A DNA stretch of 54,728 nt, the filler included, from Perkinsus olseni (taxonomy: Eukaryota): assembly GCA_013115125.1 (NCBI GenBank). It is 3 parts of 3 records of this genome, joined end to end, with 100 filler letters (N's around TTAATTAATTAA, not from the genome) between each part and the next. Parts side by side here need not be neighbours in the genome. Positions count along the whole stretch, not along the records: positions 1 to 18,191 come from JABANN010000620.1; positions 18,292 to 36,466 come from JABANN010000621.1; positions 36,567 to 54,728 come from JABANN010000622.1. One strand, given 5' to 3'. A program made the translations under genes and the position numbers. A model generated the notes under the pieces. The model was not told the DNA's origin. It was given only the letters and a program-made list of their open reading frames with translations, and did not search any database. Each line of letters starts with the position of its first letter. The stretch's first letter is position 1. Positions 3,672 through 43,812 of the stretch are shown here, piece after piece.

Positions 3672-3766
3672 TGCGCTGTAACGCGAATGGTCATCGCTTC
3701 TGCGCACGCCAATCTAATCGATTGTGTTCATCTGGTGAGGCGCAGGTTCGACTCCCAAGCCCGGTA
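3672..3766 (+). pseudogene. tRNA-like relic
   Basis: A-box-like TAACGCGAATGG and an exact B-box GGTTCGACTCC (3745-3755). The T-loop is followed by 5+7+1 nt and then TTTTT. Stems are degenerate. Confidence 0.55.
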
Positions 3767-3929
3767 TTTTTCTGTCATTATTTCCGGTGGCCTTCGTAGA
3801 TCTGTCCTGCCAGGATCGTCTTTCACACGTCGAAATGGATGCCAGGAGTGCTCCTGAATTTAGAGGGGCCTTTTCTATTGACCGCCCTCATTTACCCAGT
3901 GAGCGGCAGTTTGAAGGAGCGTTTAGTAA

Positions 3930-6716
3930 ATGGGTGAACCCGACGGCGAGAAGGCGACGTTTTGGTACACGATGGTGGCCTCCACTATGGGCTCGGTGGC
4001 GGTCACTGCAGTTTGCACTCCCTTCGATGTGGTCAAAAATTACTGGCAGGTAACCTCGTTTGTATCTTCCTAGGATCAACCTAAGATGCGCTTTCTTTTT
4101 AGGCATCACCTGCTTTGAACCATCAGCGAATCAACACGAGTGGCTTGCAAGTGATGCGGCACATTAAAGACGCTTACGGTTGGCGGGCGTTGTGGAACGG
4201 CACAGTTACTAGTCTAGTGTATCAAATACCATCAAATTGGGTAGTGGGGAGCACGTTGACCTGTTTCGTATCTTGCATGCTTCAACCTATGATACTTATC
4301 TCAGACCTTCTTTCTACTGTACGAGCGTTGGCGCGAAGATGTCCCTGACGGAGTGGCGAGTGCCGCTGCTCGAGCCACCGCTGTTACTTTGTTTTCTCCC
4401 TGTAGGTTGATTGGTACGATTTGCGGGAAATGTGGTATTACTATTTTTAGTGGAATTTCTCCGTACGCGTGTGCAAGCCACGACAGGGATGGGGGAGGGC
4501 GCCATGGCGACGGTGAAGCGAGTTTTACGAGAAGATTCCTTTTCGAGCTTCTGGCGGGGATTGCTACCAACATTGGTCCGGTAATATCTGGGGAATCTTA
4601 GGTTGAACACGGTTATATTCAAAAAAGGTCGAAGATACCCCCCATATCAGGCGATTAATTCTCAATGATATTTCTCTTGTCTGCATCTGTTATACCACCC
4701 TTGCCTTACGGGACTGTTGCCTCCACTCACGAGCACTTTCCGTCCCCTCCACGACAATGGTATTACGCGTAGCTTCCTTGCCGAAGATCCCGGGTTCGTT
4801 CCTCGGTGGCGCTACTATACCATTCAGAAATCTATTTGGCGGATAAGCGATTCTGAATGGTATAGTTCAACTGCTGTCCTTTTTCCCTGCCTTCATACTT
4901 GTGGAGGAGAAGCCCGTCCACGACCCGGCTATAATTCGCCGCGTTTCGCTTGATTATAGCTGTTTATGGATTTGATAAAAATATCCTAAGGTCGATTATA
5001 GTCGTTCACGGAATCGATGAGGATGTGAAGATATCCTAAGGTTGATTACAGTCATTCACGGAATCGGTGAGGATGTGAAGATATCCTAAGGTTGATTATA
5101 GTCGTTCACGGAATCGGTGAGGTTGTGAANNNNNNNNNNNNNNNNNNNNNNNNNNNNNNNNNNNNNNNNNNNNNNNNNNNNNNNNNNNNNNNNNNNNNNN
5201 NNNNNNNNNNNNNNNNNNNNNNNNNNTAGTCGTTCACGGAATCGGTGAGGTTGTGAAGATATCCAAAGGTTGATTATAGTCGTTCACGGAATCGGTGAGG
5301 TTGTGAAGATATCCTAAGGTTGATTATAGTCGTTCGTGGATTTGTTGTTGCATCAGAGATCTTCCTTTCTCTGCAATCTACTGGTCACTTTACGAGTACA
5401 ACAAAAAGCTCTTCTTACCCGACCATGTGGAACGTCGGGGAGCCGCGAGATACGCGAATAACGAGGAGCTCTTGGAACTGGCAGAAAAACAGGTTGGGGT
5501 AGTAAAAGTAGCATAAAACGGTTTCACTTCGACCTTACTAGCAATTGTGATTATTGGACCTATCTCGTGATGGTCATTCCTAGCTTGCGCGACCGCTTTC
5601 ATGCGCTCCTATAGATGAATCGAATAAGTTAGACAAAAAAATCCGGGAATCTTCCTGTGAGCTCTCGGAACTCTCGAAATTCGTTTTTGCAACTGCCGAG
5701 TAATCTTATTCGTGAATTTGTGTGTCTTTCGCTCTTCATTGACGGCTTATATTATTATTCGCTTTCATCACGGGATTCATGGGTGGTGCGAAATTTTCCG
5801 ACTGTACCAATTTTTTTATCGACTTTCCTATCGTTTTGCTTGCTGCGTCGTTACCACGGAATATCCTTCTTACCATCCCTTGCGAGGTGGGTTATCGAGG
5901 GGATATCTTGTGGAATCTTAGGTTGACGCGAGGAATACACGAAAATTTGCAGTATCTTAGGTTAATCAGCCAGTAACGTGGATAGAAACCTTCGGGTTCT
6001 CCTTCCTTAATGGGGCGGTATGCGGCACAATCGCAGCCGCTGCGACGCATCCGTTCGACATGGTCAAAACCCAATTACAAACCGCCACTCGACCGAACAA
6101 ACAACACACTAACGTGGCTAAACGGTAAGTGGATTAGCGCGCGCCCGAGTGATCGAATATTGATATTGGGCGGCAGTGCAACCTCGACCTGGTTGAAGGA
6201 TACCAGCTTGATTCCGGCGATATTTGGACCGACTGGGACCTGCCGTCAGACGGCTTTCTATTTTACCACTATAACTGATTTTATGAGAGACTCGCCGTAG
6301 GGAGGGGGAGGGGATGTACGGTCGCTTCTCGTCATAATCGATCATCAGGGCGTGCGCTTTTTCTTTATGACGGTTTTTGGACTAATCGGCTTCAGGATTC
6401 ATACGACTGGTTCGGCGATGATGGCGATTTTCAAAGAGTATCGCTTGCGTGGATTTACTGTTGGTTTGGGACCCCGGCTACTGAAGGTGCGTATCCTAGG
6501 TTGGAGGGTGGAAGATACGAAATAGGTCGTGCAGGTCATTCCTGGATGTGCAATTATGCTTGGAACCTACGAGTTCTGCCATGCAGTAGCGGATAGCCTC
6601 GAGCTCGACAGAGTTTTGAAGGTGAGTCGAAGACAAAAAATTCAGTCGGTTTAACTTGCCGAATTTTTCAGGATCAGAAAGCTGAGCTTCCGTCGTCGTC
6701 GAAGTCCACACGATAA
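3930..6716 (+). CDS. Mitochondrial carrier protein, SLC25A39/SLC25A40/Mtm1-like, multi-exon
   Basis: Spliced translation gives three carrier signatures: PFDVVK (~4020), PLEFLRTRVQ (~4400/4450) and PFDMVKTQLQ (~6050). It also gives subfamily motifs RDLPFSAIYW (~5357) and VIPGCAIMLGTYE (~6535). Introns are GT-AG. ATG at 3930, TAA at 6714-6716. Confidence 0.92.
4742..4814 (+). pseudogene. tRNA-like relic (Gly-like) inside a carrier-gene intron
   Basis: T-arm CCGGG-TTCGTTC-CTCGG pairs fully (one G-U). D-loop-like AATGGTATTA, TCC at the anticodon position. Other stems are broken. Confidence 0.5.
4978..5336. repeat. Intronic tandem repeat, 50-bp unit, spanning an assembly gap (N 5130-5226)
   Basis: ATATCCTAAG recurs at 4981, 5031 and 5081 and again after the gap. 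Confidence 0.95.
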
Positions 6717-7418
6717 CCTTCGTCATTAGCGGCCGTTGAATTCATCGTCACTTCTGTTACATCGTTAAATTGCCTGTTTTATTCCTACCACCCATTGCGC
6801 GTCGTTTCTGCCGTGGAGAGTGTTTTGTTTGGAGTTGAGGACCACACCGTTCGCCGAGGCCCCGTTTTCGCCGGAGGCTGTGACATAGGTGGAAGAGGTC
6901 AGGCTCTTCGATGCGTCTTTACGGCGTATTAAATATGCGTACACTAAGTAGGTCTTAATAATAGCGACTACTTGCTAGAGACAATACACGAGGGGCGCTG
7001 AGACATCATTGACGTGCACGCGTAGAGTCATGCCAGAATGATGTGTCCCAGCGAGCCACTCAGCATCAACTGTCCCTTTAGAAATCACGGCTGATACTCT
7101 TCGCACAGTTGCATGGGCTTCCAGGTGTACCAACTAGTTCCCATCTTTCTTTGGTAGAGGATGAGATAGTAGGGGAAAGGAGCCACCGCCACGTGACAGG
7201 TGCCAGGAATAATCGTGGGGAGTTTTGGCGCAGTTTGGCGAGAAAACTGAAGAAATTTTCTCATGGCCTTTCTTCTGAGTAGACTACTTGGAAAGGGCCA
7301 TAAGAAAATTAAAGTAGTCACTGACGGTAACGTCAGTGGAAGGCGACGTCCGTCAGTGACTACTCGAAGTAGTCACTCAAGGGCCCATCAAAGGGCTACA
7401 CTTCACCATCATTTTGTC

Positions 7419-8175
7419 CAGGGGTTTATTTCACAGGAAATCCTAACCGGTTAGGATTTAGGACGTCTTCAAAAATAAAAATCTTAACCTCAAAACGTTC
7501 TCAGAAGAGTCAACCTGTTTCGCATGAAAAAAGCTTTGAAGGACAGTTGGATCCTAATTTTAAAGACGCCCTAACTCTCTTACCATACCAAGCAAGAAAG
7601 GAGAAAAATGCGATTTACCGGGTTGGAACCGAGGGTCTCACGAGTATCAGTCGCGTTGCTCAACCTACCGAGATACAATACTTGAATCGCGGGTCATGAA
7701 GATGAGTCCTTCATGACTACCACAGGCGCTAGACCTACGAGAAAAGTACTGCAACAATTGCAGTCTGCAACTCGCAGTGCACTTCTAAACAGATTGCACA
7801 GCACGCCGCTGTAATTAAATTTGCAAAAATACACGAGTCCCGAAGATTTGACATGTGCCGGGAGAGAACCAGGAAGCTTCTAGCGGAGCGGAACGTCTAC
7901 CATTTTCGCGGTTAGTATGCCTAGAAAGACTCCTCCGAGGTACTTCACGATGTTGTCCTGAAAACGTGTCCTAACGTTAGGAAAAGTGCCTTGCGAAATC
8001 CATACGTCCTAACCGCCTAACCTAATGTCAACAACCGCGTCCTAATTCCTAAATTCTAAATGGTAAGATCCTTTTGTCCTACCCTTGAGTCCTTTGCTTA
8101 GGAATCGGTCCTTGGGAATGCCATAAGGCCTAAAAAGGAGTCCTAACCCCTTAGGATCCTGAGGAAACCGTCCTG
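7419..8175. mobile_element. Putative degenerate non-autonomous DNA transposon (hAT-like ends)
   Basis: Imperfect terminal inverted repeats (CAGGGGTTTATTTCACAGGAAATCCTAA and TTAGGATCCTGAGGAAACCGTCCTG). Dense subterminal CCTAA/TTAGG motifs at both ends. No target-site duplication seen. Confidence 0.4.
7609..7690 (-). pseudogene. tRNA-like sequence with GAT (Ile) anticodon
   Basis: On the minus strand: GCGATT/AATCGC acceptor pairing, D-arm CTC-GGTAGGTT-GAG, anticodon arm CGCGA-CTGATAC-TCGTG, T-arm TCGG-TTCCAAC-CCGG, then A and TTTTT. There is an 8-nt insertion after the acceptor 5' strand. Confidence 0.6.
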
Positions 8176-8518
8176 ACTGCCAACATAACGCTTAAGAGCT
8201 TCCTCCAGGCAAGACTCGTAATCGATCATTGAACGCATATGCACAGCAGCTACGCTTCGGTACTCGGCGGTCGCCATTCCTTAATAGGGCCAGTGTAAGA
8301 GACTGGCTGCTTGAGACCACAACACCCGGGTTTTGCCATATGGAGTCCGATCTCTCATCTGTTGTCTTCTAATCATCCGCCACTTAGCTTACCTTCAGTG
8401 TAGCTTCTTGTCGGAGCAAGATAGGATCAGTGACATAGATATTAGTAATGTCTACGTCGCTGATCCTATCTGTTTTCCAGTATGTGATGTCACATTACAA
8501 GAGTCCCTCAGACTCCCT

Positions 8519-8666
8519 GCATACTCACGCGAGGGCACGCGAGTGCAAGGCGAATAGTGAAGTCAGATGGTTATCTGATACTAATGATACGTAGTAGCAG
8601 TAAAGGTAAGTGCCACTATAGTGCACTTGTTTCTCGCACCCTTGCGCTCGCGTATGTGAGTATGCG
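8519..8666. repeat. MITE-like dispersed repeat with imperfect inverted ends
   Basis: GCATACTCAC..CGCGAGTGCAAGG is mirrored by CCTTGCGCTCGCG..GTGAGTATGC. The core 8535-8605 is similar to 39677-39745. Confidence 0.55.
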
Positions 8667-9309
8667 TGCTCAGTCGCGATCGAGAGTGACCCTACCCTTG
8701 ACCTTCATGGACGAGAAATAAGAAGAAGGACCGTACGTGGAGACCGGCGGTCTCGGGAGTTCTCGACGTATCGACCCCCACGTAGTGAGAGATTGTACAT
8801 AGCGCGGCCAGGGTCACACTCGGGACAGTCAGGCGTCCCCTAGGTGAACCTATGATACCAGCAATAATGGCCATGGTAGACAAGGAAGGAGGTATCCATT
8901 AACTCGACTTGCTCAGCTATTGGACTATCGTGACAACTGCCCTCAACGGGAGGGCATATCCCCTCTGGTGATTCACCGGTTCCAGGCTTGCGTCCCGTGT
9001 AACCTCACAGCGGGCGTACAAGCCCGCTGTGACCGTGTGATCAAGCCCGCTATATCCAAAATTTCAGCTCATGACTCGGAAAATTGAATGCGTGAGGTCC
9101 GTCAAAGCAAATACAATCTTTAGATGGCGGGTACTGTACGATAAACAGGAGAGGCGTACGGAATGCAATAGCTATGGGACAGAAGCTTTGTAGCTGTGAG
9201 AATTGTGTGATGGCACAGTGCACACTGACGATGTAATATACGTCTTATCTTGTAAGTGTTTCGGTAAAAGTGGAGCGCAAAGTCTAGGCTAGTGGAGTAT
9301 GTTCCACTT

Positions 9310-9382
9310 AGCCATTTGGCCATGTGGTTAACTTGTATACTTGCGAACCGAAAGACCCCGGGTTCATTCCCCAGGTCTGACT
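9310..9382 (+). pseudogene. tRNA-like relic
   Basis: A-box-like TGGCCATGTGGTTAA followed at tRNA spacing by CGAAAGACCCCGGGTTCATTCCCC. Confidence 0.55.
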
Positions 9383-9540
9383 GATGCGCGATACTTACTC
9401 CGGCTACAGCTTATAAACACTAATGTTCCACAACACTAGTGCACCCGTGATAACTACCGAGCACAACACTAAGACCTTTGTAACATCATCAACATCATAT
9501 GACCTTATCAAGCCAACACTCCCACTATCATCCACCTACT

Positions 9541-10608: not shown

Positions 10609-10664
10609 ATTTTGCTCGAGGAAAGAGACAGATCTTGCTTTCTTATCAACTCTTGCATTTCCTC

Positions 10665-10705
10665 AACGCTGGTGAAGACTCGCGGTTCGAATCCCGGTAG
10701 CGACA
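10665..10705 (+). pseudogene. tRNA 3'-half relic
   Basis: Exact B-box GGTTCGAATCC (10684-10694), then 5+7+1 nt and TCTTTT. Confidence 0.5.
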
Positions 10706-10990
10706 TCTTTTGAAATTCTTCGCTCCGCTGTTGAACTACCGCGCACGCCCTGCTCATCCAAACGCATGTTCGCAATCCGGCATTGGAAATATCTTTCGGC
10801 TCACCCATGGTCTGCTTGCTCTGGTCGTCTCAAACGGCGATGAGCTTTGGTTTGAATATCTTCTAAGCAATGATGTCATGAGTTTCGTAAAGGGTATCTT
10901 TTTATCACCATGAGCTTTCTCGGAAGAGCTTGCCGAGTCGCCTCTCCCTACAGAGGTATCTTCGCCATCACTCGACCGGCTCGTGGTGGA

Positions 10991-21900: not shown

Positions 21901-23753
21901 AAATCCACGCCCCCTCCCGGCTGCTTACTCTCGAGCCTGACTTCAATCTCCGCCTCTTCAACATTACCCGTCGTAGGCGCATCGCCACTACTGTCATCAT
22001 CATCACCACCATCATGTGCGCCACCATTGTCATCACCGTGTCCACCAGCAGCGGCATCGACAGCGGTATCCGACGTAGTTTCTGCAGTGGCCGTTGCTGC
22101 TGCAGTCGCCGCGGGCCTCTGCCGCCGTCTATGTATGACCCTGGGTCGATCATCACCAGGCTCCGTGGGCACCACCATGGGTACTGCTGCCACCCTCATG
22201 TGCAGCCACAGTTGAAGGAGGCCAAACCCGCACAAAGATATCAGTATCCCTCCACACAGTACTCCCAGCATTGGACGCCTGAAGATCATAGCTAGCCAGG
22301 GGAACTGACTGCCGCTGGACGAACTCGGGCCCAGCACGAAACCGTATCTGAGCACACAGTGACACAGATGCCAAGTCATCGTGCAAGGGGACTCCGCCCT
22401 TAGGGGAGGTGCGATATCTGTCACCGCGCCACGAGCGTCACTACATCTGAAGCCGATCAGGGAAGCCATCGATGACGCCAAAGATATCCGCCAATACCGT
22501 CATCGACATGAGTGGTAATAATACCTGAGGAACGAAGGAGCGCCATAAAATGATGAAACAGATGACTAGGGCAGCACTTTTGTCAATTTAATTTTCCCTT
22601 CGAGCAGAAAAATATACAACATTTTAACTCTTCAAAAAAGGGAGTTCCGGAAACTAATTCCTCCCGTGTTTGACGGCCACCGATATTACCAGCCATATCG
22701 TGAGGGCATAGAGTGGCCGAAAACATTTCTTGACAAAGGAAAATATCAACTTCCAAGTTTCGCTGAGGAAATATCTCACGGGAAGGTGACTTGGCGCATT
22801 GGGAGCATATCTGAACGTGAACAGCGTAATCGAAAGGTCGCCGGTTCGATTCCCTCTATTACACAACTCGAAAAGAAAATTTATGGCCGCACAGTTCGCA
22901 GCGCTGATCCTCTAAAATGAAAGTCCCATCATCGTCATCAGTACGACCCGTACCTGAGGCAGTCGACGAGAACTGGGCAACTCGCCTCGTGAATATCGCA
23001 ATGTATGGTATTACCATATGGACACTAGCTATAAATACTTTATGTGGCCACGCTGGCAAAGTAGATACTGATTTGGTACTATTACACATTTTACAATTAG
23101 TATATTTTATGACTTTATCTATTATTAAATGAAAATGATGATCAGAAAATTTTTAGGATCTCTTCTTGAGAACTTTCATATCGGTTGATACGGTGCGTCC
23201 CACACATGTCTACTCTTATCAACATACAGATGTGAAGAAAAAGATTGCCCTCAAGCTGGCCGTGGTAGTCATCCACTCCATCAAAGATATCCAATTACCG
23301 CGCGCCAAGAAATCCCTTAGTATTACGTCGCATAGCCAGCCACCTCCTCAGACATTGTTCATGTACGTAGGCTATGCTGCCTGAGCATCGGCATGGATGG
23401 TAGAGAGGGCCCTCCTCCACTCCTTGGCCACAGATACGGCACATTGCAGCATCCGAAGATTCGCTACGACCTCGCGAACGGGCTTCTTCCACCGTTTCAT
23501 TCTTCTCCTGGGTCGGATTCTGCGCCGAACTCGAGTCAACCAAAGATACTCCGTCCTGTGTCGGCTGGTCCGAGGCAGGTCGAAGAGAGGATTCGTCGAG
23601 GTCGAAAGATACGCTGCTGTCTCTAACACTGGCTATACTATCGGTCTCCACAGCGTTGGTAACGACACTCGCCGTATCTTCGACCGTCGGAATATCAGAG
23701 GCATCCGATACCGACCTCGCATGATTGGCCATTGGGGATCCATCCATCGTCAT
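18978..23753 (-). CDS. MARCH6: MARCH6/Doa10/TEB4-like RING-CH E3 ubiquitin ligase, multi-exon
   Basis: RINGv CRIC..PLYHPCRCSGSIAYVHEQCLRRW..CELCGHKFSF followed by YAPNAPSHLP. Many hydrophobic exons. Doa10-type C-terminal element MFDERYLVSTELENF before the stop at 18978. Internal exons are not all resolved. Confidence 0.9.
22811..22862 (+). pseudogene. tRNA 3'-half relic occupying a 52-nt MARCH6 intron, antisense to the gene
   Basis: TAATCGAAAGGTCGCCGGTTCGATTCC with an exact B-box at 22843-22853. Confidence 0.55.
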
Positions 23754-25817: not shown

Positions 25818-27170
25818 TGCGAAGGCGGGTAATATGGCGTAGTAGTCAGAGTAGTGGTTTGATGACCGGGAGGTATTGGGTTCGATTCTAATCAGGTCCG
25901 TATAGGCCTCTTCGGACCGTACATCCCAAAACGTCATCACTCCAGCTCTACCGCTCGTAGAAGGCCGGTGTTTTTGCCGCCTCCGATGAGCATCGGTTAT
26001 TGAGGTGGGCGTATCTTGAGGTCTGTGAGAGCCCAGGTCGACTTGTAAAATACCGACTGGTGATGCGTGGTGGGATGCCACCCAATTTCTGAAAGAAGAC
26101 ATCAATTCTGGACCGATAACACTGCCATAATAATTTTTACAGTCTATCCACATCAATTCGCAATGTCGTATACTATTGGTCATTTGAGCTGTAAGAAATA
26201 CCTGCATGTGCACTGGCTGACCTATTTTGTATCTCCCGCGAATCAACCTTGGATACGGCAGTGTTATTTATCAGCTTGTTGACTGTTGTGTGGGGCATTC
26301 CTATTGGGAACTAAGAATCTCTGATGTCAAGTTTGAAGGGTTCATGTTTTCCTTTTCCATGCCACCCGCAAGCAGCAGCAGCAGGAACTCGTGGGTTGAC
26401 CTCGACTCGCCGGAAATACAGCGGCTAATCGAATGGTAATTTACGCTCGAGTATCTTCCACCCGATTTGAGATGTGAAGTAGGTATAAGTTGAAGCCCGA
26501 TGAACGGCGACATTTGGCCAAACCTTGTGGAAGGGCAGCACCGGAGGCAGCAGGTGTTTCAAGGAGGACTCGTGAAGGGCTGTAGCATCGAGTTTGCTAT
26601 GATGCTGAGTATTTCAGAAAGGCCTAGCAAATTGCCGAGGATCGTGGCCCGGGCGTCGGGTGAAGTGAACCGGCAACAGCAGCGAGAGGAGGGGGATGGT
26701 AGTCGACCTAAGCAGGCAAGGATGGAGGACAAACGGCGCCGTGAGGCTATGAGGAAGTAGTGACGGTACTGACAGGGGAGATGTGGTAGAGATGTGGTAT
26801 CTTCGTCGTTCGTGGAATGCTGGGTCGACCTGCCATATATACAATATGTTAAACGGTCAGTATTCCCTGGCGAATGGAAAAGTGTAGAGTCTTGGAAATC
26901 TTCGGTGCTCGCTTCTCCCTCGCGAACTATGTACAGTCATTCTTGCCGTTCCATGGGAGAGTCTCCGTTGGTGTCGAAGAGATTCTCCAGGTTGTTGAAC
27001 AGCATCGAAGCAGCTTGCCGAGAGTACAGCCGAGCGATGGTCCACTGCCAGTACAGAGGTCAGGCCTTGCGGGATGAAACGCGGAAGAGAGACGTGCTGC
27101 CGGTAATAGAAGGGTATTCTTTTTGGGCTATTCTGCATCTAGCGAGCTCCAGGGTAAGATACCTTCTCAG

Positions 27171-27538: not shown

Positions 27539-28341
27539 ATCTTGAGGTTGAGCGTGCAGTATGCAGTGAGGTTGGGTCGAAGTTGGGCTCATCGGGGCCC
27601 GTTCATGCTACGAAATGTTAATAATGGGTTTCTAAGCGCTGATGTTGGCTTAGTTCTTGGAGATGGGTATCTAAGGTCGATCTGTGCATGATACGGATGA
27701 GCTCAAGGAGTTCAGTATGCTCCCCGGCATCTTGGGAACGACTTGGGCTGATCTTATCATCTTCAGTTTGGCATATTTCATTTCCTTCATCTCCATCGAG
27801 AGGAGGAAATTTATCTTCAGAAAAGACAAGTCGCACGGACAGCACCGATTCCGGCAGAGTTGGTCGTGCTCGACTTTCAACTTTTATAATAATCTTTGGT
27901 GGCAGTAGTACCGAAGGAGTTTTTCGTAGTCCGAACCCCTTCGGCAGAAAGTAGAAGATATTCTGTTGGAGATACCAGTGACTTGCCGCTCCTGTTTGAA
28001 AGCAGTCAAAGAGACCCTATCAGCGGCCTTTCGAACATCACCAACAAGAGCGAACTCGACAGAAGAAGAAGTACAGCAAGCAGGGATCGAACCAGGGACC
28101 AACCGAAACAGAAGTCACTTAAGAGACACGAATAAGACAGTGTTGTCTAACTCTTCTGATAATAGTAAAGGGAAGAGAAGCGGCCCGTCTGAAGCTATGG
28201 GGTGCGCGAGGTCGACTCAATCCAAACCGCCAGGTGAGTATCTTTAGGTTGAGGTGGTGGGATACGAATAAGGTTCGGGACTTGTGAGGGTATCTTAGGT
28301 TGATGCGTGCATAGGATAGTTGAGTGCCTTCGTTTTGTACA

Positions 28342-31080
28342 GATGTGGCGCGCATTGCTTCAGCAATAGTGCAAGCAGGAGGTGTTGATCCGTCCTCAGG
28401 AGGGGATGGTAGTAGGCAACGAACGCCCAACGCTGCTGCTGCTGCCGCTTCCTCGACGGAACAGCATCATATACCGAGGGATACCAATACGTAAGAAGGG
28501 TCGATAGGCTAGTAGGGGAGAGGTGTGGGATGCTGAAGTGGCCACCCGGGTTCGAATCCCTTGTAGTTGAATTTCTGATATTTCTCTATTTAGTGTATGA
28601 TATAACTACAACGATTGAGATCGAGAAATCTTAGGTGATGTTGTGTATCGTAGACGATAAGGCGCACTGCATATCATAGACACACCATTGCCTGTTCATT
28701 GTTGCTCGGCATGGTATCTTTCGTATGCCAGGTTGGACGTGACGGTGGATCGAACTTATGATCCATTCGAACCTGACCATATCGACAAGCAAACTATCAA
28801 CGGTTCGGCCGACTTCGTCGTTCGAATATTCAACATGCAGTGTCGATCCTTACCCGAGAGGATGTCGACTAAACTCAGGATATGCTGGGCAGGTAATAGC
28901 GACGGTGGGGAATCTTCGCTGTGCGCATCGGAAGGGTATCCTCCGCGCTTGATTGTTATTATTACCATTCTCGATAGGTACGGTGTACGAGACGGGATGG
29001 CGATGGTCAGCGGACCCTCAGTGGACGTCCGAGCCGATACGATTCATGTGGCATTACAAACCGAGCCCGAATAACAACCGAGGGATAGCAGGAAAGTTCG
29101 TCAAAGTGGATGTAATACATCTTAGTGGGTCTCGGGATCGTTGGATATTCTTCACAGTGCGGTAGTATGATATCTTTCTGGGTGTATGTTAGGTCATCCA
29201 GAAGCTCCCAGATGGGAGTGAATGTTGTCGTGGTACGGTGAAAGTATCTATGCTGACCATCGCGACTGGCCCGATGCACCACGATATTGGGTTGGAGCCC
29301 CCCCTGTCGGAGGAGGATGATGATGGCCATGATCATCTACATCATCATGAGCACACCACTGATGTGCAGCATGCGGAGCGGCCGAAGGGAATGACACCTG
29401 CGGCTAAGCTAGCGGAATCTGGCGTCGGTAGGTCGTAGTAGTGGGGGGGGGGGTAAGAATCGCTTCAGTTTCGTGGCGCGCGGTCAGCGGTTTAGTCTGT
29501 GGGCCTTCGAACGATCATGTGCGGGTTTGGGTAGACGAATGTGTCTACTGTCACGGTCGCCCTCGGTTCTCTGCTGTTAGTTCACACATGGGCCGAACGT
29601 GCGCGGTGTGAGTATCGAGTATCTTAGGTTCAAGCAGGCTCGTGATGAGTATCAAGATGGCTCAGCAAGGGAAGATTTATTTGCAGACTCAGGAAGCTTC
29701 TATTGACTTTGGTAAGACATTTGATTATTTTCTCGCGCGCCCTGAAATCATCATGTTATTGCTGCTTAGGGAGCGGTCACGAAGGTTATCCAGAAGTAGC
29801 TACTCCCCCATGCGATGACGATTCTGCGATGGGTAATCGAAAGGTCCCCGGTTCTAATCCTGGCAACAACATTATCCCCCAGGCCCCTCCTATATTGCTT
29901 CTAGTGAGCTTGTACCCGAGCAACCCGGAGAGGCGCCTTCCCTGGTGTTTGACGGGACTAGGGATCTCGTGGAAGGCAGTCAGCATACTGGGCGCCACTA
30001 CCTACTAGCGTATAACATAACAGGCTTGACATCATAGTAATGATACTGGGAGAGAATTCGTGCTTCGCTCCGCTGGGAATCTTATGTTTTGCATCATTCA
30101 TGGTAAATGCTTGTGGTATCTGAACCATGATGAAGTGAAGAGTCTTGCCGGCGCTGGCGTCGTCCTAAGAGGTTCATGTGTGGATTTCTTCAATTTTCTA
30201 CGTATCTTATCGAATTCATCGCGGTGCGGTGTGAATCTTCTCGTCTTATTTCGGTGGTATCTTGTCAGTCCTCAAACACCAGCGCCGCCTCCACCAACCC
30301 TTCCGGACTCTCCGGCGGGGCCAATTCCACAGTCCTTGGATCAGCTCAGTGATCATGTGTTCCCGGGGAATCTTTTCTCGACTTGGACACCATGCGTGCA
30401 GGAACCTGAATGGGATAATACTGATGGCCAGGTGAGGTTGAAAGATCCCTCTAGGGGTTGCGACCTAGGACGTATCTTTCAGTTACCGTTGGTGTGCTTG
30501 AAAACAAGTATGACATATTTGCGAACGGAATCGCTTTTATTGCGACTTTATTCATCGATCAATTTGTCACCGGATAAATTGGTGAAGTTTCGAGGCGAGA
30601 CATGGGTAAGATTCTGACCTATTTTGTATCTTGCGAGGATAACCTGGGGATACGGTTCAGATTCCTCTAGCGAAGATATATGAAGTGAATGAGTGGGGCC
30701 GTAACGCTATGAGTTCGGCTAATTCGGACTCGGATCAGTCAGCGTCGAACCAAGGCAACTCACCGCCTTTCATCGAACGTAAGTGTATCTTGAGGTTGAG
30801 CAAGCAAGATACAAAATAGGTTAGTCTCATGACACTTTGGCTTCAGGGACAATGACCCAGAAACTTTGGAATCACGGTCGTCATGTCGGCTTGTTGACGA
30901 TGCATTTCCGCATCACCGCCATGCCGCGATATAGACAGCTAGCGGCTGGGGTAATGCCACTGAATATTATTCTGTCACGCGCCCGAAAATTAACTTCCTC
31001 GTTCTCGGCTAGGTTCATATTGGTAACGGTTTTATCGCGAGAACGTCCGCGATTGTCCGCGACGAGCGACCGGGAAGGGC
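28342..31080 (+). CDS. Multi-exon protein with C2-like domains (boundaries approximate)
   Basis: Exons encode LRICWAGTVYETGWRWSADPQWTSEPIRF, GTVKVSMLTIATGPMHHDIGL and EPEWD..LLLRL..GETWIPL, which show C2-like beta-strand patterns. Confidence 0.5.
28499..28570 (+). pseudogene. Intronic tRNA-like relic
   Basis: A-box-like TAGGCTAGTAGG and an exact B-box GGTTCGAATCC (28549-28559). Confidence 0.55.
29830..29871 (+). pseudogene. tRNA 3'-half relic (Val-like)
   Basis: CGAAAGGTCCCCGGTTCTAATCCTGGCAACAACA resembles the 3' half of eukaryotic tRNA-Val. Confidence 0.55.
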
Positions 31081-31125: not shown

Positions 31126-34100
31126 ATGGGTGAGTTATTCACGATGACGATCTTTTTCACGCAGGCGGCATTGAGGCGGATGCCGGATAAGCTGCGGAGA
31201 GTGTTCTATTTGAGCGAACGATTATTGAGTCCAAATGAGACGAAACCATTCGGTGAAAGTCAGAAGACGGAGAAGCTGGTATTGGAACTTGCTGATGCTT
31301 TCAGCGTCTCGGGTACTACAGGATTCGGGGAAAATACGGTACGAAGTTTGTCCGAATTTATGCGGCGATACCAATTAGCGGCAGAAGTAGAACTTTTTTC
31401 TCTGGAAATTCGAGAAAATGTTCCATTGCTTTGGGTGAATTACCGGACATGATGAGCTCGGTTGCGACGAGTCGAATTATTTTTTCTCAGCTTCCCGTAC
31501 CCCATCTTTTAGTCACTAATAGTTCCATCTGTTTAGGATCATTTTTTTCGGAGTAGACATTTCGTTTTGTGGCGACAGTCCAGTATCATTGCCCTCTTCA
31601 GATAAGCAGTCGATGAAGTCATTCATCTACAGTAGTGATAGGAATCTTCTGAAGGCCCAAGGTATGATGATGGACTTGATACATCAATCTGTGGCGATGC
31701 TCTCGTACACTACTGGTAATAATCATTAACTACTACCCGTTTGGCATCGTCCGAGGGTATGATGGCTTGCGAGGATTCTCCGCTTTGGTAGTAGTCACTG
31801 TGGGAACGGCATCATCTGAATTGCTCCATTGTGTGATTCTGTTTAGTAGAAGGTGAATCCTGATCATACAGTAGATTAGAAGCAGCGGGCTGAATATTTT
31901 AGATTTGTCTTCTGGCGGAGCGGAGTGATTCATGTTATGGAATTTTTCAGGTGGCATACAATGGGGTCTGCAGCAAGCCTATTGTCGATTACTACAAGCC
32001 TTGATAGTTCGAGGGGAGTTGGAGTAATAAAATATCTTTGGCACGAACTTGTTCCCAACGAGCTTCGCTCCGCTAAAATTACCTGCATTTTCAGAGCCCT
32101 TTCGCAATTGCCCCCTCCTCCTAGTGGGTATACCTCTCACGTTGAGGCACGCCGGGACTTGTTGAAGTATCGGGAAAATAAGGCTCAGAAAAGTACTGCG
32201 AGTGCGTGCATACCAACTTTTCCGCGCATCATCGTTGTGTGTCAGTCTCATTGGGCCCGGGGGACCCCGGGTATCTTGACGAGACCCAGGCTGCGGCATT
32301 GGAATGGTTCGAGACCAGAATGAACTGTTGTCGTCGATGGCAAGATACAATGTAAAGATGGGGAGGAGCAAATCATGAATATAAATTTCGCCTCCGTGTG
32401 AAATTTGTGAAATTTTCCGCAAGTGATTTCTCTGTTGGTGTGTGGAAGTGCTTCGCTGTTGTTGAAAGCAGTTACCCACGTTGAGATAGGATCGACATAA
32501 GATGTGAATGCTCGGGTTCGAACTCTGGACCTATTGCATGCCAAGTCACGTCCTCCTACGACTTAGTCATTCTCGGATGCCCTCTCAGATACACGCTAGC
32601 AGTTTTCGCCTTGCGGACGATAGACTCTGGTCGGAGAGGTTACAACCTTTATGAGGTTAGCCCAGATATGATACCGATGTTGTATGCGAGGTAAGGAGAT
32701 ATGCCCAGCGGATCGGGATGCGCTCCGTTCGATCTTCCCGAATTCATTCTACGTCATGTGGATAACTTTCCGCACGGTATGAGCTCTCACCGAAAGTATC
32801 TTCTTATGTGGTATATAATCGCTAGTAGCATAACCTATCTCATGGGATGGACTCACCATGTGCGTATCTTTCCACTCGTTATGAACTCACCATGTGCGTA
32901 TCTTTCCACTTTTTATGAACTCACCATGTGCGTATCTTCTCACTTGTTATGGACTCACCATGTGCGTATCTTTTCACTTGTTATGGACTCACCATGTGCG
33001 TATCTTTTCCTCGTTATGGACTCACCATGTGCGTATCTTTTCACTCGTTATGGACTCATTATGTGCGTATTTCTCCTCGTATAGAAGACCAACTATATGC
33101 ATACCTCTACAGTTGGTGTACACTGATGACGTATCTTGCTATTACCAGGTTATATTTCCTAGTACCAGAGCTTGGTAGAACAGTAGCTGATTGTTTATTA
33201 AGCAAAGAGGAGGAAGATATGGATATCGCTGAGTGGAGAGGCAGCTCGTAAGGTTGACCTGCGTTGTGCAAGGTGCGAGATACGCCGAGTATCTTAGGTA
33301 TAGCCTGATGCGAGCATCTTTACACAGCAATCGAGTGTGGGTCCCTCAAGCAAAAGATATTCAATTACTATTCGACCTTACTGACTTCCATAATGGATTG
33401 AAGTAATGAAGAATCTTTGTGTGCATGCGTGTAGATCGGCGTGGCGAATGGTATCTTGTTATGCTTTTTCAGTGAATACTTTGGATTAACGGAGCATGGA
33501 TGGGTGAGAGTGAAACGCAGACTGCTGCAGGTGAGGAAGGTCGAAGCCTGCTCTATAGGCTTCGAAAGATACGTTTTCATTGTCTTAGATTCAAGTTCAC
33601 GCATTGATCGGCGAGAAAAGTTTGTGGCGCGCGAGAATGAGGAAGAGGAAGACAACGTTTTTGCTCTTCGTGAAGTGTTGGTGCAAGTATGAACCTGTTT
33701 TGAATCTAGCATGCTTAACGCAGAGATACGTTTCTTGCAGATACGTTTCTGAAGTGGTTGTCGACCAGAACCAGCTGGCAGATTTGTGGAAGTATTTACC
33801 TGGATATCGGACGCTTCTCAAGGGGGTGAGTATCTCCAGGTTGATCGCGAAAGATACCAAATAGGTCAACTTCGAACCCACAGGTATTCCTTTGCATGAA
33901 GTACCATAAGAGAGTTGACCACTACCCGGATGCCTTAGTCGACTGTGCGGCCAGTGTCCTGAGGAACACACAGACGCTCAGCTGCATCGTGAAAGTGAAC
34001 AACTATGCCCGCTCGTGTCCTCTCGCCCTATCTTACTTTCAGATAATGTTCCACAGTACCAATGTCTATAACCAAAAAGCTGTCGCATGCGCTATGAAGA

Positions 34101-35617: not shown

Positions 35618-36466
35618 ATGAGTAGACGCCAAATTAACAAGCAGCTTCGCTTGGCGGAGGAGGTCGAAGTCGAGGGACCGCTCCCGGCTGCTGTTGCCGC
35701 TGATGATGAAGACAACGCGGATGAACTGCTGGTTGAAGATTCTCCCAGACGATGTGAATGAGAGGCCGTCAGAGTGAATATCGTCGATACCGACGGTTCC
35801 ATTTAGATAAGAACGTCTTCGCCGCGGCAATGGACAGCGATGATGACGATGACGACAACACGAGTTCGAGCGATGAGGAGGAGGAAGAAGAGGATGTGGC
35901 GCCTCAGCTGGTGAAGCCGATGGCGCAGGCAGGGGGGAAGAAAGCACAGCAGAAGCAACCCCAGAAAAAGAAGAGTAGCCCTCCACAGCAGCGGAAGAAG
36001 GCCAAGGCCTCCAAGGCAGGCGAGGAAAGAGGTAACTACTCCCGGGTTCGATCCTCAGCTGCTTCATTCTTCCCTGACGGCGAGTCACGATGAAGTCGAT
36101 ACCGAACTGTGCATGATGGAACTAGCAGTTTCGGATGGGCCTGACCACGACTCGAGCAGGTTCACCTTCTCCGATGGCGCCCGCTGCATCCGATCCTCTA
36201 TTGAAGATTGCCCGGAGGAACCTTAATCCAGAGACTGAGATCAAGCGTAAGTCGAAATGACACTTGTGGGAGTCGAACGTACGACCTCCGCAGGGATCTT
36301 CGGCTCTGAGGCCTACACTCTGAGAGTTCGAGCGGAGAACGCCGCCGGCCACCCCCACAATCGGATCATCAACTATCCCCGCGGTATGGGGTCGGCCACG
36401 GCTGCTCGATCCAGTGCGAACTTGAAGAAGAAGTCGTGGCTGTTGCACGACTGGCCTATGAACCAG
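35618..36466 (+). CDS. TCF25: TCF25/Rqc1 ribosome quality-control protein, 5' part truncated by the contig end
   Basis: MSRRQINK start, NVFAAAM, acidic and Lys-rich tracts, and LLKIARRNLNPETEIKR-IFG, matching the TCF25 LNPDTELKRYFG motif. Confidence 0.78.
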
Positions 36467-36639: not shown

Positions 36640-36746
36640 AATCGAAGGGCGGTCCTACGCTGGTGGTGCCAGAGGCGATCAACTAATTAGATATCAATCT
36701 TGGCGCAGTGCCCATGGAACAGTCCCGCCGGGACTCCAATTACTGT

Positions 36747-37567: not shown

Positions 37568-37660
37568 GGCTCACAATCCGAGTCGGATCCTCTGACTCTT
37601 GAATAGCGGGCCGCTATTAGCGGCGCTATTACATCGCAGGTTCGATTACCTGCAGAGCCA
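37568..37660 (+). pseudogene. tRNA-like relic with a long variable arm (Ser-like)
   Basis: GGCTC/GAGCC ends, TCCGAGTCGG D-loop-like, CTTGAAT loop, GCCGCTA-T-TAGCGGC hairpin, T-arm GCAGG-TTCGATTA-CCTGC, then A and TTTT. Confidence 0.55.
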
Positions 37661-37748
37661 TTTTCAATGTATTTTTTTGGGGAATCCCGGGGAATTTCGC
37701 CCTGGGAGGGAAAGCCTTGTAGAATTCCCCATTTTCGCCACCCTGTCT

Positions 37749-38280: not shown

Positions 38281-38323
38281 AGTCCGATGGCAAAAATGTT
38301 CATGACGGGGCCTAATCGTTCTC

Positions 38324-38416
38324 ACTGAGGGCGCTGATACTCTTTGTATCACCTTCCTTGGCGAAGAAATTGAGCTCATCAAGTTTGCTTATCAGCTGAC
38401 CCCGGGGACGTTCCTC
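38324..38416 (+). pseudogene. Fragment of a paralogue of the secreted protein at 40717
   Basis: TEGADTLCITFLGEEIELIKFAYQLTPGTFL aligns with FNGVDAVSTSFQGETIVLMRVGFEFTPGTFV. Confidence 0.7.
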
Positions 38417-40716
38417 AGAGCAACTTCCTCTATGGCACGGACGACAATCCGCGCCTGCACTTAAGGCTACAGATATCCCCGGACGGGCTAATGGCAGTGC
38501 ACGTCTTGTGTAATGCTAGGCTATCCGCGAGCGGACGCCTCCCCTTCCATGGCAGGAGCGCGATCAAACCGCGGTTCACTACTCTCTAAGATCGTCGAGA
38601 AAGAGCTCTTTCAAAACTTCCACTCATATGACCGCACTCATCTCACTCATCGTACCGCGGCCCATACTGGGGTTACTCCGGCACTTGGCTTCTGATCTCG
38701 GTCTCCTCCCCCAGTGACGATCAGACGTCAGCTTCGCCTCCTGGATGGCGTATCACTACTCTCTATCTCTCTCTACTCTCTATGGTTCGATGGCGATTAG
38801 CTGGTCAGGCTTGCGTCTTGCACGTAAAAGATACTGTCAGCTCGCTCAACCACTCAGCGGGGAGTTGTCCCCATGTTTCCCATTCAGCTTCTTTTCCAGC
38901 ATTGGAAATGTGTTCTTCTCTTCTCTTGACCAACATAAGTAGTAGCCTGCGATCGCACTGAGTTCACTCACAGTGTTTTCACGCCTGCCTCTTGACTCTG
39001 TCGAGTTTATGAGTCAACTTGGAAAGATGCGACTCCATCCAAATTCTCTCTGGGTAGACTCTCCAGTGGTTGATGTGGGTTCCACTGCAGCCTTCTCCCA
39101 GAGTGAAGGGGCGGGCCGGGGAAATTTGACACTCTTCACGAGTCTGAGTACGCAAACCGCGAAATATCTGCAGACACGGCTGGTCACCTGCATGATGTAG
39201 CCATCCCGGATTCCAGAGGTGCTACTGATGGCCCACCCGAAGCATTACCAAGAGGGTGGTATGCCATCATTCGTCGCAAGAGTACGCAGCATGGGACACT
39301 CCACAGTAGTGTATTCTATAGTTTCGATCCTACAGTACTAACGGCATCGAATGACGATCCAAATAAAGAAAGGCTCGACGACGGCACTGTTTTACACAGT
39401 GCCGTTCACAAGGCACAAGTTACTCAAAGTCAAACTTGGCTAGCACGAGCACTTAATAATTGGTCTACCGCCTTTGCTGTTATGAGAAGTTTCAAATTTT
39501 CTTTGAAGTAGCTCATCCTAGAGTTTAGTTTCATCCTGTGAAGCGAACCCACAGTTTTGATGATCAGCTCTATCCTATCTGATTGACTTGATCGAACACC
39601 GGACTCGAGGGGGGTTAATCGATCATGGGAAACTACAGCGTAAGCTAGCCTAGCGTAAGTTTCATCCTAGAACCCACGCACGGGAGTGCGAGGCGCATAA
39701 CAAGGTCAGACGGCTATCTGAGTCTAGTGATACGCAGTAGCTGTGACTGGAGCGATGGTAGTCTAACAACCGAGTACTACTCAGTGAGTAGTACTGGAGT
39801 CGGTGGCAGCTGGTGCCTAGCTTGCAGTCGTCACTATAGTACACACGCGAACGAGTGAAAGATACTCGCACGACACAATAGGCGCACGCGCGCCCTCGTG
39901 GGCCACGAGTCATCTCCATTGGAGATGACTTGCGGACTCAAGTGGCACGATCTAGCGTATTGCCACCCCTCCCTGCCGAAGGACAAGATGTGGGCAAAGC
40001 AGCGTTCAAGCTGGAAGCCATGCTAACCCTCTAGCCTCTCTGCTACCACAGCGCCTAACCTGCGCCTCTCCGAGCCACTCAGATGCTCAGTGCTCCATCG
40101 GCCCTTCCACCCAACTCAAGAAGTAGAAGCAGGTCAGGTTACGAGCCACACTTTTGTACCAGGACATAAGTTACAGGCCCGTGCTCGCCTGGTTTCAGTG
40201 TCTCTCCCAACGCAAGCATTCATGGGATTCCCTACAACTCGAGGTTTCTTGAGAACTCGCTAAAGATGAGGCCGGGCGTGGTAGACTCTGCCCTTCTCGA
40301 AGCCAATTGACGGCAGGCGAGCAGTTGAGGCTATCAGTTGCAACTCGCAGCTTGGAGGACACCAGTCATTTGTGCAGGCTGAACCGGCTCGGATCTCAGT
40401 GCGGCGCAAGAGCCAGCTCTGTCTGGGACAGTCTGTCCCTCTAGCCGGCACGCGTGGACATAGCTCATCTCAGCTCAAGTGAGCTAAGATCGGGCCGTCG
40501 GCTAGAAGTTGGCTCCGAAAGTGAAGTCGCTAAATCTGCGAGCGCCGATGAGACTGAATCTTGAGAAAAGAAACACCGCAGGTGTGATTCGTAGTAGCGA
40601 TCTCTTACCGTGTAGATTCCACACTGTGGAGTCCTCCAGCGGGCTGCCTAACCTCGACCCTCCCTCCTCGTCTCAGTGATCCGTCCTTAGTAGTTGGCTG
40701 CACAGCATCTCAGAGC

Positions 40717-41445
40717 ATGAACGTCACCCAAGCTACCTTGATGGCCGCCCAGATCTTTTCCTTTGTGGCGTCTCTATATCCTGGCAGGTTTTACCGTACT
40801 GTGGGAGCTACCAATATGTACATGGACGTGTACGAGTCCGAGTCTGTGGTCTTCCTCCTTCAAGGGCATGACCTGCCAACGTACGTCAGCGGTCATCTTC
40901 CGCTGAAGGGCGACGGCTCCTCTTACTCTCTTGATATCGATGGTGCTGAGCTCCAGGAGTTGTATGGAAATATCACCAAATTCCAGATAAGTGTTCAAGA
41001 CAAGGACCTCACCACTTTCAGCTTCAACGGTGTAGACGCTGTCTCTACTTCTTTTCAAGGGGAGACTATCGTGCTCATGAGGGTGGGCTTCGAGTTCACG
41101 CCAGGGACGTTCGTTCATCTCGGGGCCGGCAACGCTCCAGTGACCTTGAGGTTTCAGATAGAATCAGATTGAGGACTGGAGGTGGCTGTTTTGTGCGATG
41201 GGAAGTCCCTATCGAGCGCTTTGCAGCTTTTTCGCCAGGAGACGGATTACGGCTCCGTCTACTACGCTATAGAGTCATCTAGAACGGACTCTCTCAGGGC
41301 TTTACAGGCATGGGTCGAGCTGAACTGCCCTCTGCCCACTCATGGAGTTTATGATCTATCTACCGCGACCATTGCGACCACGGTCACGATCTACACACAG
41401 CTCGGAGGGGCTCCAGTCGCACTTACGAGGCGAGCACTTCTCTAA
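40717..41445 (+). pseudogene. Two-domain secreted protein gene interrupted by an in-frame TGA (41170-41172)
   Basis: ORFs 40717-41172 and 41182-41445 are in the same frame. Signal peptide present. The two halves end alike (FQGETIVLMR and LGGAPVALTR). Confidence 0.7.
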
Positions 41446-42349
41446 TTTTCATGAGTAGGTCGTTTAGGTCAGGCGGCCTGGTAGTATTGACCGGATCCCA
41501 CTTGTACGCAAAAGATCCTATCAGCTCACCGGTGGTCAAGTTACCGGTGAATATTCTTATTTGGTCAGCTCAGCTGATTCTGCTGGGTCTCTCCAGATTG
41601 GAAGAGACTTTCCCTCTCTTCTTCTCGCTGAGTTAGGTAGCAGCCCGCATTCGCACCGAATGCGCTTGGCCTTTTCCCTTGGCGTCTTGAATCTGTCGTG
41701 TTCCGAAGTCAACCTCCTGACGAGCGATTGCTCTCGAAACCTCCTTTGGTAGACTACCGTTAGCCACTAGCGAATTTTCTGATAACGTTAATTCGGTAAT
41801 TTTGAGGTACTCCCAGCTCAGCTATCCCTCATTACCAAGAGGCACATCGCGTACGCAGCATGGGAAACTCCACAGTACCTCGCACTGTTATTCGGTAAAC
41901 ACAACAGCCAGGTAGGTATCGGAGAGGTTAATCTCAATCTTAACTCGTCTCCTCGTTTATCAAGCTCAATAGCACATCACTTGAGCCTACTAGCAGTAGA
42001 CAACGTCACAGCATGTCGCGACAGCCACAGTGTCGTTTCGTGGCAACACACTGTGGGCCTCGAGGTGCTTCGCTCCTGATGTGCACGCAGGCTGAAGCTG
42101 AGGAGCTCTGTGCTGTATTGAACACGCTCCTGCGGCAAGGGTCAGAATGCTCGCGAACGAGCGGATAGCCGGCAGAATTCGAATACGCGGCCTTCGAGAT
42201 TCACTCCCGAAACTGTCGATCTGGTTGTCAGTCAACTTGACTGAGTCAAGCTTTTCGAAATTCGGGGGAGTCTTTCGTACGACGATTCAGCCAGGGCTAT
42301 TGCTTGCCGGACTTGCCTCACGAAGTTACTGAAGTTACCTGAGTCATTC

Positions 42350-42907
42350 ATGGAGAACAACACCTCAGCTGAGTCCAGGCGCGGAGCTCTGGTAAAGGCG
42401 ACAAATCGGGTCATGGGAGAGGAGCCAATCGACGATGTCACTACATTCCGGGGTCGAATAGCGAGAGATGGCCGAGCTAGGGCAGTTGAAGAGGCCCTCA
42501 GAGCCAGCAGTCCCCAGGTGCAACCGAAGGCGTCTTGGCTGGGAGGCTTCAAAACTCGAACTTCAACAGCTCACCGACTTTGGCCTCCGGTCAGGTGAGT
42601 ATGCGAGCTGTGCTATCGGGTATCGGCTTGGAGAAGTACTTCCCCCATTTCCGGGAATCCGGTGAGGTGCCGTCGGAGATGTTTGAGAATTCGCTAGAAG
42701 CTGAGCGGGGCGAGTGAGGTCAGTGTGAAGGAGTGGTCCGTTGCCCGCTTGACAGGCTTTGATCTTATCGAGGCCAATCAGCGGCAGACGAGCAGAGAAG
42801 TGGAGGATATCATCAATACTGTGTCGAAGCAGCAGCGAGTTCACATTCCGCACGAACACAGGGCGAAAATATGGAAGGCCCTGAGGTGCTCTCATCTAGC
42901 TGTCTAG
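42350..42907 (+). CDS. Small SAM-domain-like protein, multi-exon (splicing not fully resolved)
   Basis: VLSGIGLEKYFPHFRE and IPHEHRAKIWKAL match SAM helices 1-2 and helix 5. Confidence 0.55.
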
Positions 42908-43812
42908 TAGGGCAGGGATGATCCGTAGGTACCGGTGGTTCAAGTCGCCATACCATGTTAAAAATCATATCCACAAGAACGAGGCAAGCGACCCTTTATC
43001 CGGTGCCCGTCAGTGGTTGGGATAGATACCAAAACTTCATCTCCCCAAGAAGGATGCTCGTCCTCGGGATGCCTACGTCGACCTCGCTAAGCTCGACTCT
43101 GATCGTCAACGTATGGTGTACAGACAGACAGTAGCGGACGGGAATAACCAGGCCAGGGTTGTTCAGTAGGACTTCGGATCTCATGCAAGCGATGGATCGA
43201 AAGGAGAATCTTCAGATTTGAGATTTACAGAAGGCAACCTGAGATATTCTACAAAGTGAATGGCTTGCAGAGATCCGTTGAGACGTGGAAGGTGCAAGTC
43301 GCCGCAGTGCATAGTCTCGATCCCGTCGTGTGTTAGCGGCACGATCCGAGACGGATGATATCTGGAGACCCTCGGGAAGAAGTTATATTGTTATGGATAA
43401 AGGAAGCCAAGAGGGAGTAAGTTGTTCGATTCCCTCTCCTCCCCTTAACGCCGCATCTCTGTCGAGCCAGTCGAGCGATTGCTCGTTTCTATTCGCTCGA
43501 GCTCCGCCTCGGTGATTGTCTGCCGAAAGTAATTGTCTGAAGCCTCCCTGGATTCCTGTAAAGTCGGTAGCGGAACTCTAACTATGAGATAGTAACTGCG
43601 GCAGGGTGCCGCGAACCTCGGATCGCTGAAGAAGAGTCCTTCACGTACGCTTTTGGGACCACTCTCCGCTCAGACTGGCTGCTCGAATGGGATCTATCCG
43701 TCTGCAAATCGCCAGGCAGCGGCGTATAGCGATGATTTTGCGAGTGCTTCGCTTCGCCAACTTGTGTGAGTCAATTAACGCGCCGCGAGCTCATTCTCCA
43801 AGCTAGCTCACA

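Follow-up and report, generated by a model that had tools for sequence, protein, structure and literature searches.

Relics of tRNA genes in spliceosomal mini-introns and gene margins of Perkinsus olseni: candidate ETC-like TFIIIC sites

Introduction

Short interspersed nuclear elements (SINEs) derived from tRNA genes carry dispersed RNA polymerase III (Pol III) boxes that could recruit transcription factor IIIC (TFIIIC), as the relics described here could. The passages of PMC3395662 on the extra TFIIIC (ETC) sites of yeast describe binding of TFIIIC there in the absence of Pol III, and a role of these sites as boundaries. Perkinsus introns are mostly shorter than 100 nucleotides (nt), as given in the intron passages of PMC3101222. 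Here we analyze a stretch of Perkinsus olseni DNA of 54,728 nt (the whole of it is called the window), in which an earlier reading, the original prediction, had proposed dense tRNA-like relics that keep the B-box. The relics derive from tRNA genes and have lost the tRNA fold. Some of them lie inside spliceosomal mini-introns, or form the whole of one, in sense or antisense orientation (three by RNA evidence and one more by reading frame and length), and the relics may have been kept as ETC-like sites.

Results

A discrete class of B-box modules

Exact copies of the B-box GGTTCGANTCC stand at 3745, 10684, 22843 and 28549, all on the plus strand and none on the minus strand of the window. These are the positions originally predicted; the chance expectation, put at about 0.1, is 0.13-0.15 under Markov backgrounds of order 1, 3 and 4, and none of 60 simulations per order reached four. 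With at most one mismatch there are 13 boxes against 3.6-4.1 expected, and with at most two the excess is gone (48 against 49-53). T-arm modules were scored on positions 44-48 and 52-62 only, with 40 simulations. Nine reach at least 16 bits, against 0.28 expected, none falls between 14 and 16 bits, and 90 against 95 expected lie at 6-14 bits; the strong modules are thus a discrete class set apart from the weak-score background, and the claim of a density unlike background stands on both counts. Identical linkers of N44, 12 nt and N44 at 18192-18291 and 36467-36566 divide the window into three pieces of 18.2 kb (piece 1, 1-18191; piece 2, 18292-36466; piece 3, 36567-54728), which are probably unlinked contigs in a concatenation that was probably sorted by size. 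Two of the nine strong modules lie in piece 1, seven in piece 2 and none in piece 3.

The ten near matches listed earlier are all present, with two corrections: 32515 is the palindromic face of a minus-strand relic with G53 at 32523, and 43423 has no support beyond its box. Two strong relics were absent from that list, 25879 (plus strand) and 36279 (minus strand). Two sets were analyzed: a hand-picked one of 16 relics, made of the 14 sites first listed (32515 moved to the minus strand) and these two (Table 1), and a second of 14 sites taken by box score alone (at least 12 bits; 3.9 expected).

Table 1. The 16 hand-picked relics, with the labels used in the text and the listed position of each box.
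Relic	Box	Span	Strand	Feature	Context or support
3746	3745	3737..3772	+	3' module (positions 44-73 and T5 tail), exact box, 0 of 3 outer T-stem pairs	17.3 bits
4794	4793	4742..4814	+	paired T-stem, A58 changed	inside predicted long intron ~4581-5356 of carrier-like gene
7629	~7625	7604..7681	-	near full-length Ile/Val-like pseudogene, T5 tail, position 57 changed	between genes
9362	9361	9310..9382	+	A58 changed, remnant of an A-box	downstream of minus-strand open reading frame (ORF) 9541-10662
10685	10684	10676..10711	+	3' module, exact box, A73, T4 tail	17.8 bits
22844	22843	22811..22862	-	52-nt GT-AG intron formed by antisense relic, positions 20-71, Thr-like; exact box on +	inferred intron
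25880	25879	25829..25895	+	67-nt spliced intron formed by tRNA positions 2-68, A-box and B-box	joints in X7 and X8
28092	~28090	28072..28101	-	3' module, antisense in transcribed exon 27765-28230	17.6 bits
28550	28549	28498..28575	+	relic of full length with exact box; A-box at the canonical 45 nt	starts 7 nt inside predicted intron 28491-28731
29851	29850	29833..29882	+	predicted 50-nt intron formed by tRNA positions 35-84	many other options also fit the frame; no joint among the 15 examined
32523	32515	32498..32575	-	full-length Ala-/Thr-like relic, acceptor stem 6/7 paired by eye, T-stem broken	5' match 36.0; exon/intron status unsettled
36046	36045	36032..36159	+	128-nt spliced intron opening with weak 3' module, donor at position 39	joints in X7 and X8
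36278	36279	36247..36293	-	47-nt spliced intron (gene on +) formed by antisense 3' module, positions 38-84	joints in X7 and X8; 18.4 bits
37640	37639	37631..37664	+	T-arm whose stem has 5 pairs and whose loop has one base more; A73 and T4 tail	unannotated context
42938	42937	42886..42958	+	weaker relic, Tyr-like best match	5' match p 0.02
43424	~43423	43415..43444	+	box-only match, may be chance	5' match p 0.67

Origin in tRNA genes and loss of the fold

The tRNA origin follows from the enrichment of variable loop, A73 and T tail independently of the box. Among the 14 box-selected sites, six have a variable loop of tRNA type (chance 0.08 each) and the 12-base tail holds 4.9 T against 2.8 expected. 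In the hand-picked set A73 is present in 11 of 16 relics and T at each of positions 74-77 in 10-11; C63 and C72, counted in view of the conserved 10-base 3' extension of ETC sites, occur in 11 and 10 of the 16. An A-box lies at the canonical distance in five of the 16 (p 0.008-0.037 each). The 3' geometry that had been claimed therefore holds for A73 and the T tail, and the A-box claimed for some relics is kept in those five; a T run of at least four is seen in only three of the 14 sites with a box score of at least 12 (chance 0.03 each).

The 5' match is significant at p up to 0.014 in relics 7629, 32523, 22844, 25880 and 9362 and reaches p 0.02 in 36278, as in 42938; it is lacking in 43424, 10685, 3746, 36046, 28092 and 37640. 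Relic 7629 has D- and anticodon stems that are largely paired, and its 5' match of 36.0 compares with a maximum of 31 in at most 150 random controls. Best reference types differ among relics (Ile, Thr, Met/Asn, Asp, Phe and Tyr, the exact types being uncertain). At the anticodon position 22844 and 29851 read Thr and 32523 is Ala-like, all uncertain, and no anticodon-loop signal appears on average among the 14 box-selected sites. Several tRNA types are thus represented, as proposed, whereas the individual labels (Gly, Val, Ile and Ser in the proposal) are insecure. The reference comprised 119 of 218 anchored tRNA genes drawn from virus contigs, with each type capped at 8. They are of phage or giant-virus origin, most of them probably phage and not eukaryotic, many having been found through the variable-loop pattern and none coming from Perkinsus. 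Two virus contigs, L013 and L016, hold arrays of many Met-like tRNA genes together with odd, long tRNA-like copies.

The cloverleaf stems are decayed, as had been noted. Outer T-stem pairs number 0.86 of 3 in the box-selected sites against 0.74 by chance. ARAGORN found no tRNA gene in the window, and at relaxed thresholds its counts did not separate from controls (9 against 6.7, 40 against 30.9, 109 against 97.5). Rfam gave no tRNA match in the window, only chance matches, one of them to a perfect 21-bp inverted repeat with a 1-nt loop at 54265-54307. Judged by a cloverleaf that tRNA finders recognize, the relics are not functional tRNA genes.

Relics as spliceosomal mini-introns

Four public runs were aligned to piece 2. 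Two of them, X7 and X8, show the pattern of spliced RNA, and the other two, X10 and X11, that of DNA from divergent strains. Among the 15 splice joints (of 76) examined in detail, those of three relic introns, 25829-25895, 36032-36159 and 36247-36293, occur in both X7 and X8 and in neither X10 nor X11. The first two hold the relic in sense and the third in antisense orientation. The P. olseni protein P0008 is colinear across the first, in a stretch (exons 25424-27377) that matches a named P. olseni protein at 92-97% in ungapped parts. The fourth intron, 22811-22862, interrupts a RING-variant domain (Pfam RINGv) in a gene that we take to be MARCH6-like. When retained it introduces two stops and when removed it leaves an open frame; the exons then add up to 289, the same as the offset found in RNA contig 22 of X8. 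At 25829-25895 and 36247-36293 (by RNA) and at 22811-22862 (by frame and length) the element is coextensive with the intron. Positions 38-68 are common to the four relic-filled mini-introns, a part that the box-based search favours. A word resembling an A-box at 22792 was treated as a coincidence, being part of a coding exon and 52 nt away from the box.

Further introns are predicted. Of the chains considered for RNA contig 24, the one that agrees best with its length includes the intron at 28491-28731; this intron is given as predicted only, since second-best chains overlap it. The donor of 29833-29882 lies in a 14-nt word that also occurs mid-intron, antisense, in relic 22844, so that this donor would be tRNA-derived. 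Overall, three relics lie in introns shown by RNA, four more in inferred or predicted introns and one in a transcribed exon, which sets them apart from the intergenic ETC sites. The exonic one, 28092, precedes a predicted ATG at 28197 in a transcribed leader of about 430 nt (27765-28196) before an MG- start, and is probably in the 5' untranslated region. It speaks against a pure intron rule, as do 3746, 7629, 9362 and 10685, which stand beside genes in piece 1, the runs having been aligned to piece 2. As read from the sequence, a mitochondrial-carrier-like gene has its predicted start about 160 nt downstream of relic 3746, and 10685 lies about 90 nt upstream of a minus-strand ORF, in opposite orientation.

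Protein searches for outgroup orthologues gave one match each, without intron positions at relic sites, and a metagenome scan for Perkinsus-like contigs found none. The distant homologue P0007 (51%) has, at about 34380, a 15-residue insertion resembling a retained mini-intron where the window has no intron; this is a hint, from sequence comparison, of intron turnover between relatives.

Decay of box and stem

There is moderate support for the view that the variable loop and box have changed more slowly than the stem. In the nine strong modules the pairs 49-51/63-65 are kept in 10 of 27 cases (12 of 27 with one-base slips), against 2.65 of 3 in the 119 reference tRNAs, and all four exact-box relics keep at most one of three outer stem pairs. 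A two-rate model (d 0.14 for the box, 0.38-0.46 for the stem) beats a single rate with p 0.007, or 0.026 allowing indels. In one-rate simulations, the observed stem count has P at most 0.003 for d up to 0.2, and d of 0.25-0.5 needs 54-1062 copies and 17-64 extra weak boxes, where the observed figure is -2 (standard deviation about 7). With near-equal leave-one-out sensitivity and 0.5 expected false matches each, ten 3' modules were found against one 5' half, that of relic 25880, linked to its 3' module; this 5'-half/T-arm profile detector missed relic 7629. Of the 1059 substitutions and 135 indels between strains in the aligned runs, 40 and 12 were located. Three of the located indels are insertions, 6 bases in total, that fall at 36262-36266; this places them in the 3' arm of relic 36278, outside its box.

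Spacing and families

The relics occur at about one per 4-6 kb, and none of the 16 lies beyond 43.5 kb. The proposed spacing of one every few kb is right as an average. Regular spacing was rejected, since gaps run from 232 to 12159 bases, and the window is split in three pieces. As for the suggestion of a tRNA-derived SINE population, alignment of the flanks of the 16 relics (3' at 63-260, and 5') gave best local scores of 25-26 against a random maximum of 26-29, so that no shared SINE body emerges. The 16 have neither a common body and tail nor heads from a single parental tRNA (these resemble several types), and a repeat search of the window found no family joining them. Families of near-identical introns, as known for introners, were not found within the window.

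Other recurrent motifs in the window

The bipartite word GTATCTT(N)AGGTTGA has 21 copies with at most two mismatches against 0.47 expected, on both strands, in introns and some ORFs. Its 30 listed sites span 1328-35242; AAGATAC and an AGGTC-like end often come some 7 nt behind the word. We considered this word as an A-box-derived relic head and rejected it, since by eye only one of the 30 listed copies (33830) precedes T-arm-like sequence. A 26-nt tandem array at 11260-11491 has a unit resembling the 3' part of the motif, and arrays at 4981-5335 and 32847-33070 also hold parts of it. The word TTTCGTGGCGCG, which resembles an E2F site, has seven exact copies within 20944-35147 against none in 30 simulations, and all nine near-copies lie in piece 2; two copies fall within introns supported by RNA, and another within a 54-nt intron that keeps the frame, at about 34452-34505. 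A non-coding-looking repeat has three diverged copies (64-94%) at 37748-38225, 40250-40564 and 42684-42807, and relics 37640 and 42938 adjoin copies 1 and 3. The aspartyl protease gene at 14712-15794 has Perkinsus proteins as all five named matches (P. olseni 88%, P. marinus 49%).

Discussion

We propose, with a probability of about one half, that these tRNA-gene relics have been kept as TFIIIC sites of the ETC type. In this reading tRNA genes of several types died, and their remains lie mostly in spliceosomal introns of 45-130 nt and in untranslated margins, on either strand. After gene death the RNA structure decayed, and the DNA from the variable loop through the B-box probably stayed. By analogy with yeast ETC sites, this stretch may still bind tauB of TFIIIC without Pol III transcription, and once bound it could serve as a chromatin landmark inside gene bodies. 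The host introns would either have shrunk round the retained site or have arisen from tRNA DNA with its own GT and AG as splice sites. In yeast, the footprint of tauB runs from about +37 to +76, with contacts on the upstream side of the box, and on the downstream side tau91 touches bases that are conserved among ETC loci (structural passages of PMC11724288); the part kept in the relics lies inside the tauB footprint, which we count for TFIIIC. Occurrence in both orientations within spliced introns argues for a signal at the DNA and not the RNA level. We also count in favour that other DNA words recur in introns, 8 of the 15 RNA-shown introns carrying one of three motifs. It is rather doubtful, if conceivable, that tRNA genes are a standing source of new mini-introns in Perkinsus, kept for their TFIIIC sites, and that by extrapolation from one per 4-6 kb the genes hold some ten thousand ETC-like landmarks, as one of several intron-borne motif systems organizing chromatin.

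Several results weigh against retention for TFIIIC. The rate test had nine modules and non-Perkinsus reference tRNAs, partly chosen by variable-loop pattern. When stem pairs are counted most leniently, in the best of five registers, the total is 24 of 42. This falls close to the 5th percentile for d 0.10-0.15, within the neutral range for d 0.15-0.25, and is unremarkable for d 0.2-0.25, where the weak-box shortfall has P 0.04-0.01. The rejection of a single rate is thus moderate, not strong. The 10:1 ratio of 3' to 5' parts is explained by a 5'-truncated origin alone. Relics 7629 (changed at position 57), 4794 and 9362 (both at A58) have a damaged box and better-kept stems, like ordinary pseudogenes, and the strain differences located are too few for a comparison by position. 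Yeast ETC sites are eight intergenic loci (as listed in PMC3395662), not thousands in introns, and we found no paper that names both TFIIIC and Perkinsus. The selected B-boxes foreseen by the original prediction thus keep moderate support from the comparison of box with stem, whereas three relics speak against such selection and a regular lattice is not seen.

A possible, though less probable, explanation is that the relics are neutral debris, made of tRNA-gene copies or remnants that are anchored at the 3' end, truncated at the 5' end and able to survive only where they are spliced out, the kept box being an effect of the search. They could come from birth and death of intronic tRNA genes or from reverse-transcribed precursors ending in a U tail. 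The three box-damaged, stem-keeping relics fit this origin, as do 5' edges clustered at positions 35-42, tails of A73 and T and not CCA, and a lenient stem count that gives no clear rejection. Intronic pseudo-tRNAs are also common and not conserved in Caenorhabditis, in the account of them in PMC4999229. Decay at one rate is, however, rejected at the p values given above and predicts weak boxes that were not observed, and the four exact boxes stand in relics with hardly any outer stem pairs.

It is unlikely that the relics are instead young and neutral, with pairing lost in chimeras of two tRNA types joined at the box or through selection against hairpins in very short introns. Positions 44-48 and 72-73 are near native tRNA frequency while pairing is low, as chimeras would give, and many relics lie in introns of 47-67 nt; yet in 32523 and in 25880 the 5' and 3' parts share a single tRNA register, and stems are broken outside introns too (3746, 10685, 28092). 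Selection against hairpins would be expected to act on pairs 52-62 and 53-61 as well, and to fill the bins at 8-14 bits, where the count is 32 against 32. Very improbable is a tRNA-derived SINE or an introner-like mobile family: the high density, the splice sites at relic edges and the 14-nt word common to 22843 and 29850 would suit one, but with no common body or flank in the 16 relics, several tRNA types and no repeat joining them it is largely refuted in the window. Chance matching, which may reach 43423 and perhaps 42937 and 36045, is scarcely credible as a general account, and for the nine strong modules it is refuted by the counts of exact boxes and modules and by variable loops and tails enriched apart from the box.

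The sources of new spliceosomal introns and the role of TFIIIC away from tRNA genes are both open questions, and if whole introns are tRNA-gene relics, thousands of natural cases would be at hand for comparing strains and species on both. Perkinsus stands at the base of the dinoflagellates, as a sister lineage, and dinoflagellate chromatin is unusual. Densely kept B-boxes, if real, would bear on the origin of that chromatin. If neutral, the relics would still be an undescribed class of intron content missed by tRNA finders. Our literature search, with most subscription papers and the P. olseni genome paper outside its range, found no account of tRNA relics or B-boxes in Perkinsus introns.

Among described systems, tRNA-derived SINEs keep a 5' head, a common body and a tail, whereas the relics are mostly without a 5' head and have no body or tail in common. 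Within the window, the relics do not pass the tests for a SINE or for an introner family. The relics resemble introners and transposon-derived introns as short, inserted-looking sequences coextensive with the intron and bringing their own splice sites (PMC11282704, whose tRNA passages describe no tRNA-derived spliceosomal introns); they differ in having no near-identical families or shared ends and host tRNA genes as their source. In Caenorhabditis, intronic tRNA genes and pseudogenes likewise bring tRNA-derived sequence into introns in both orientations, as passengers, with 211 pseudo-tRNAs per genome of which 95 are intronic (figures from the pseudo-tRNA passages of PMC4999229). The Perkinsus relics, in contrast, can be the entire intron and supply its ends, are far denser and fall below tRNA-finder thresholds. 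They are ETC-like at best in their working and are not established ETC sites. With yeast ETC sites and the fission yeast chromosome-organizing clamps (COC) they share a B-box without a working tRNA, and may share conservation beyond the box and action at the DNA level (relevant passages of PMC3395662 and PMC11724288); the box has an invariant core, whose positions 53-56 were selected by the search itself. The yeast ETC sites are few, intergenic, TFIIIC-bound and conserved across species, whereas the putative sites in Perkinsus are dense, lie mostly in gene bodies and are visibly derived from tRNA genes.

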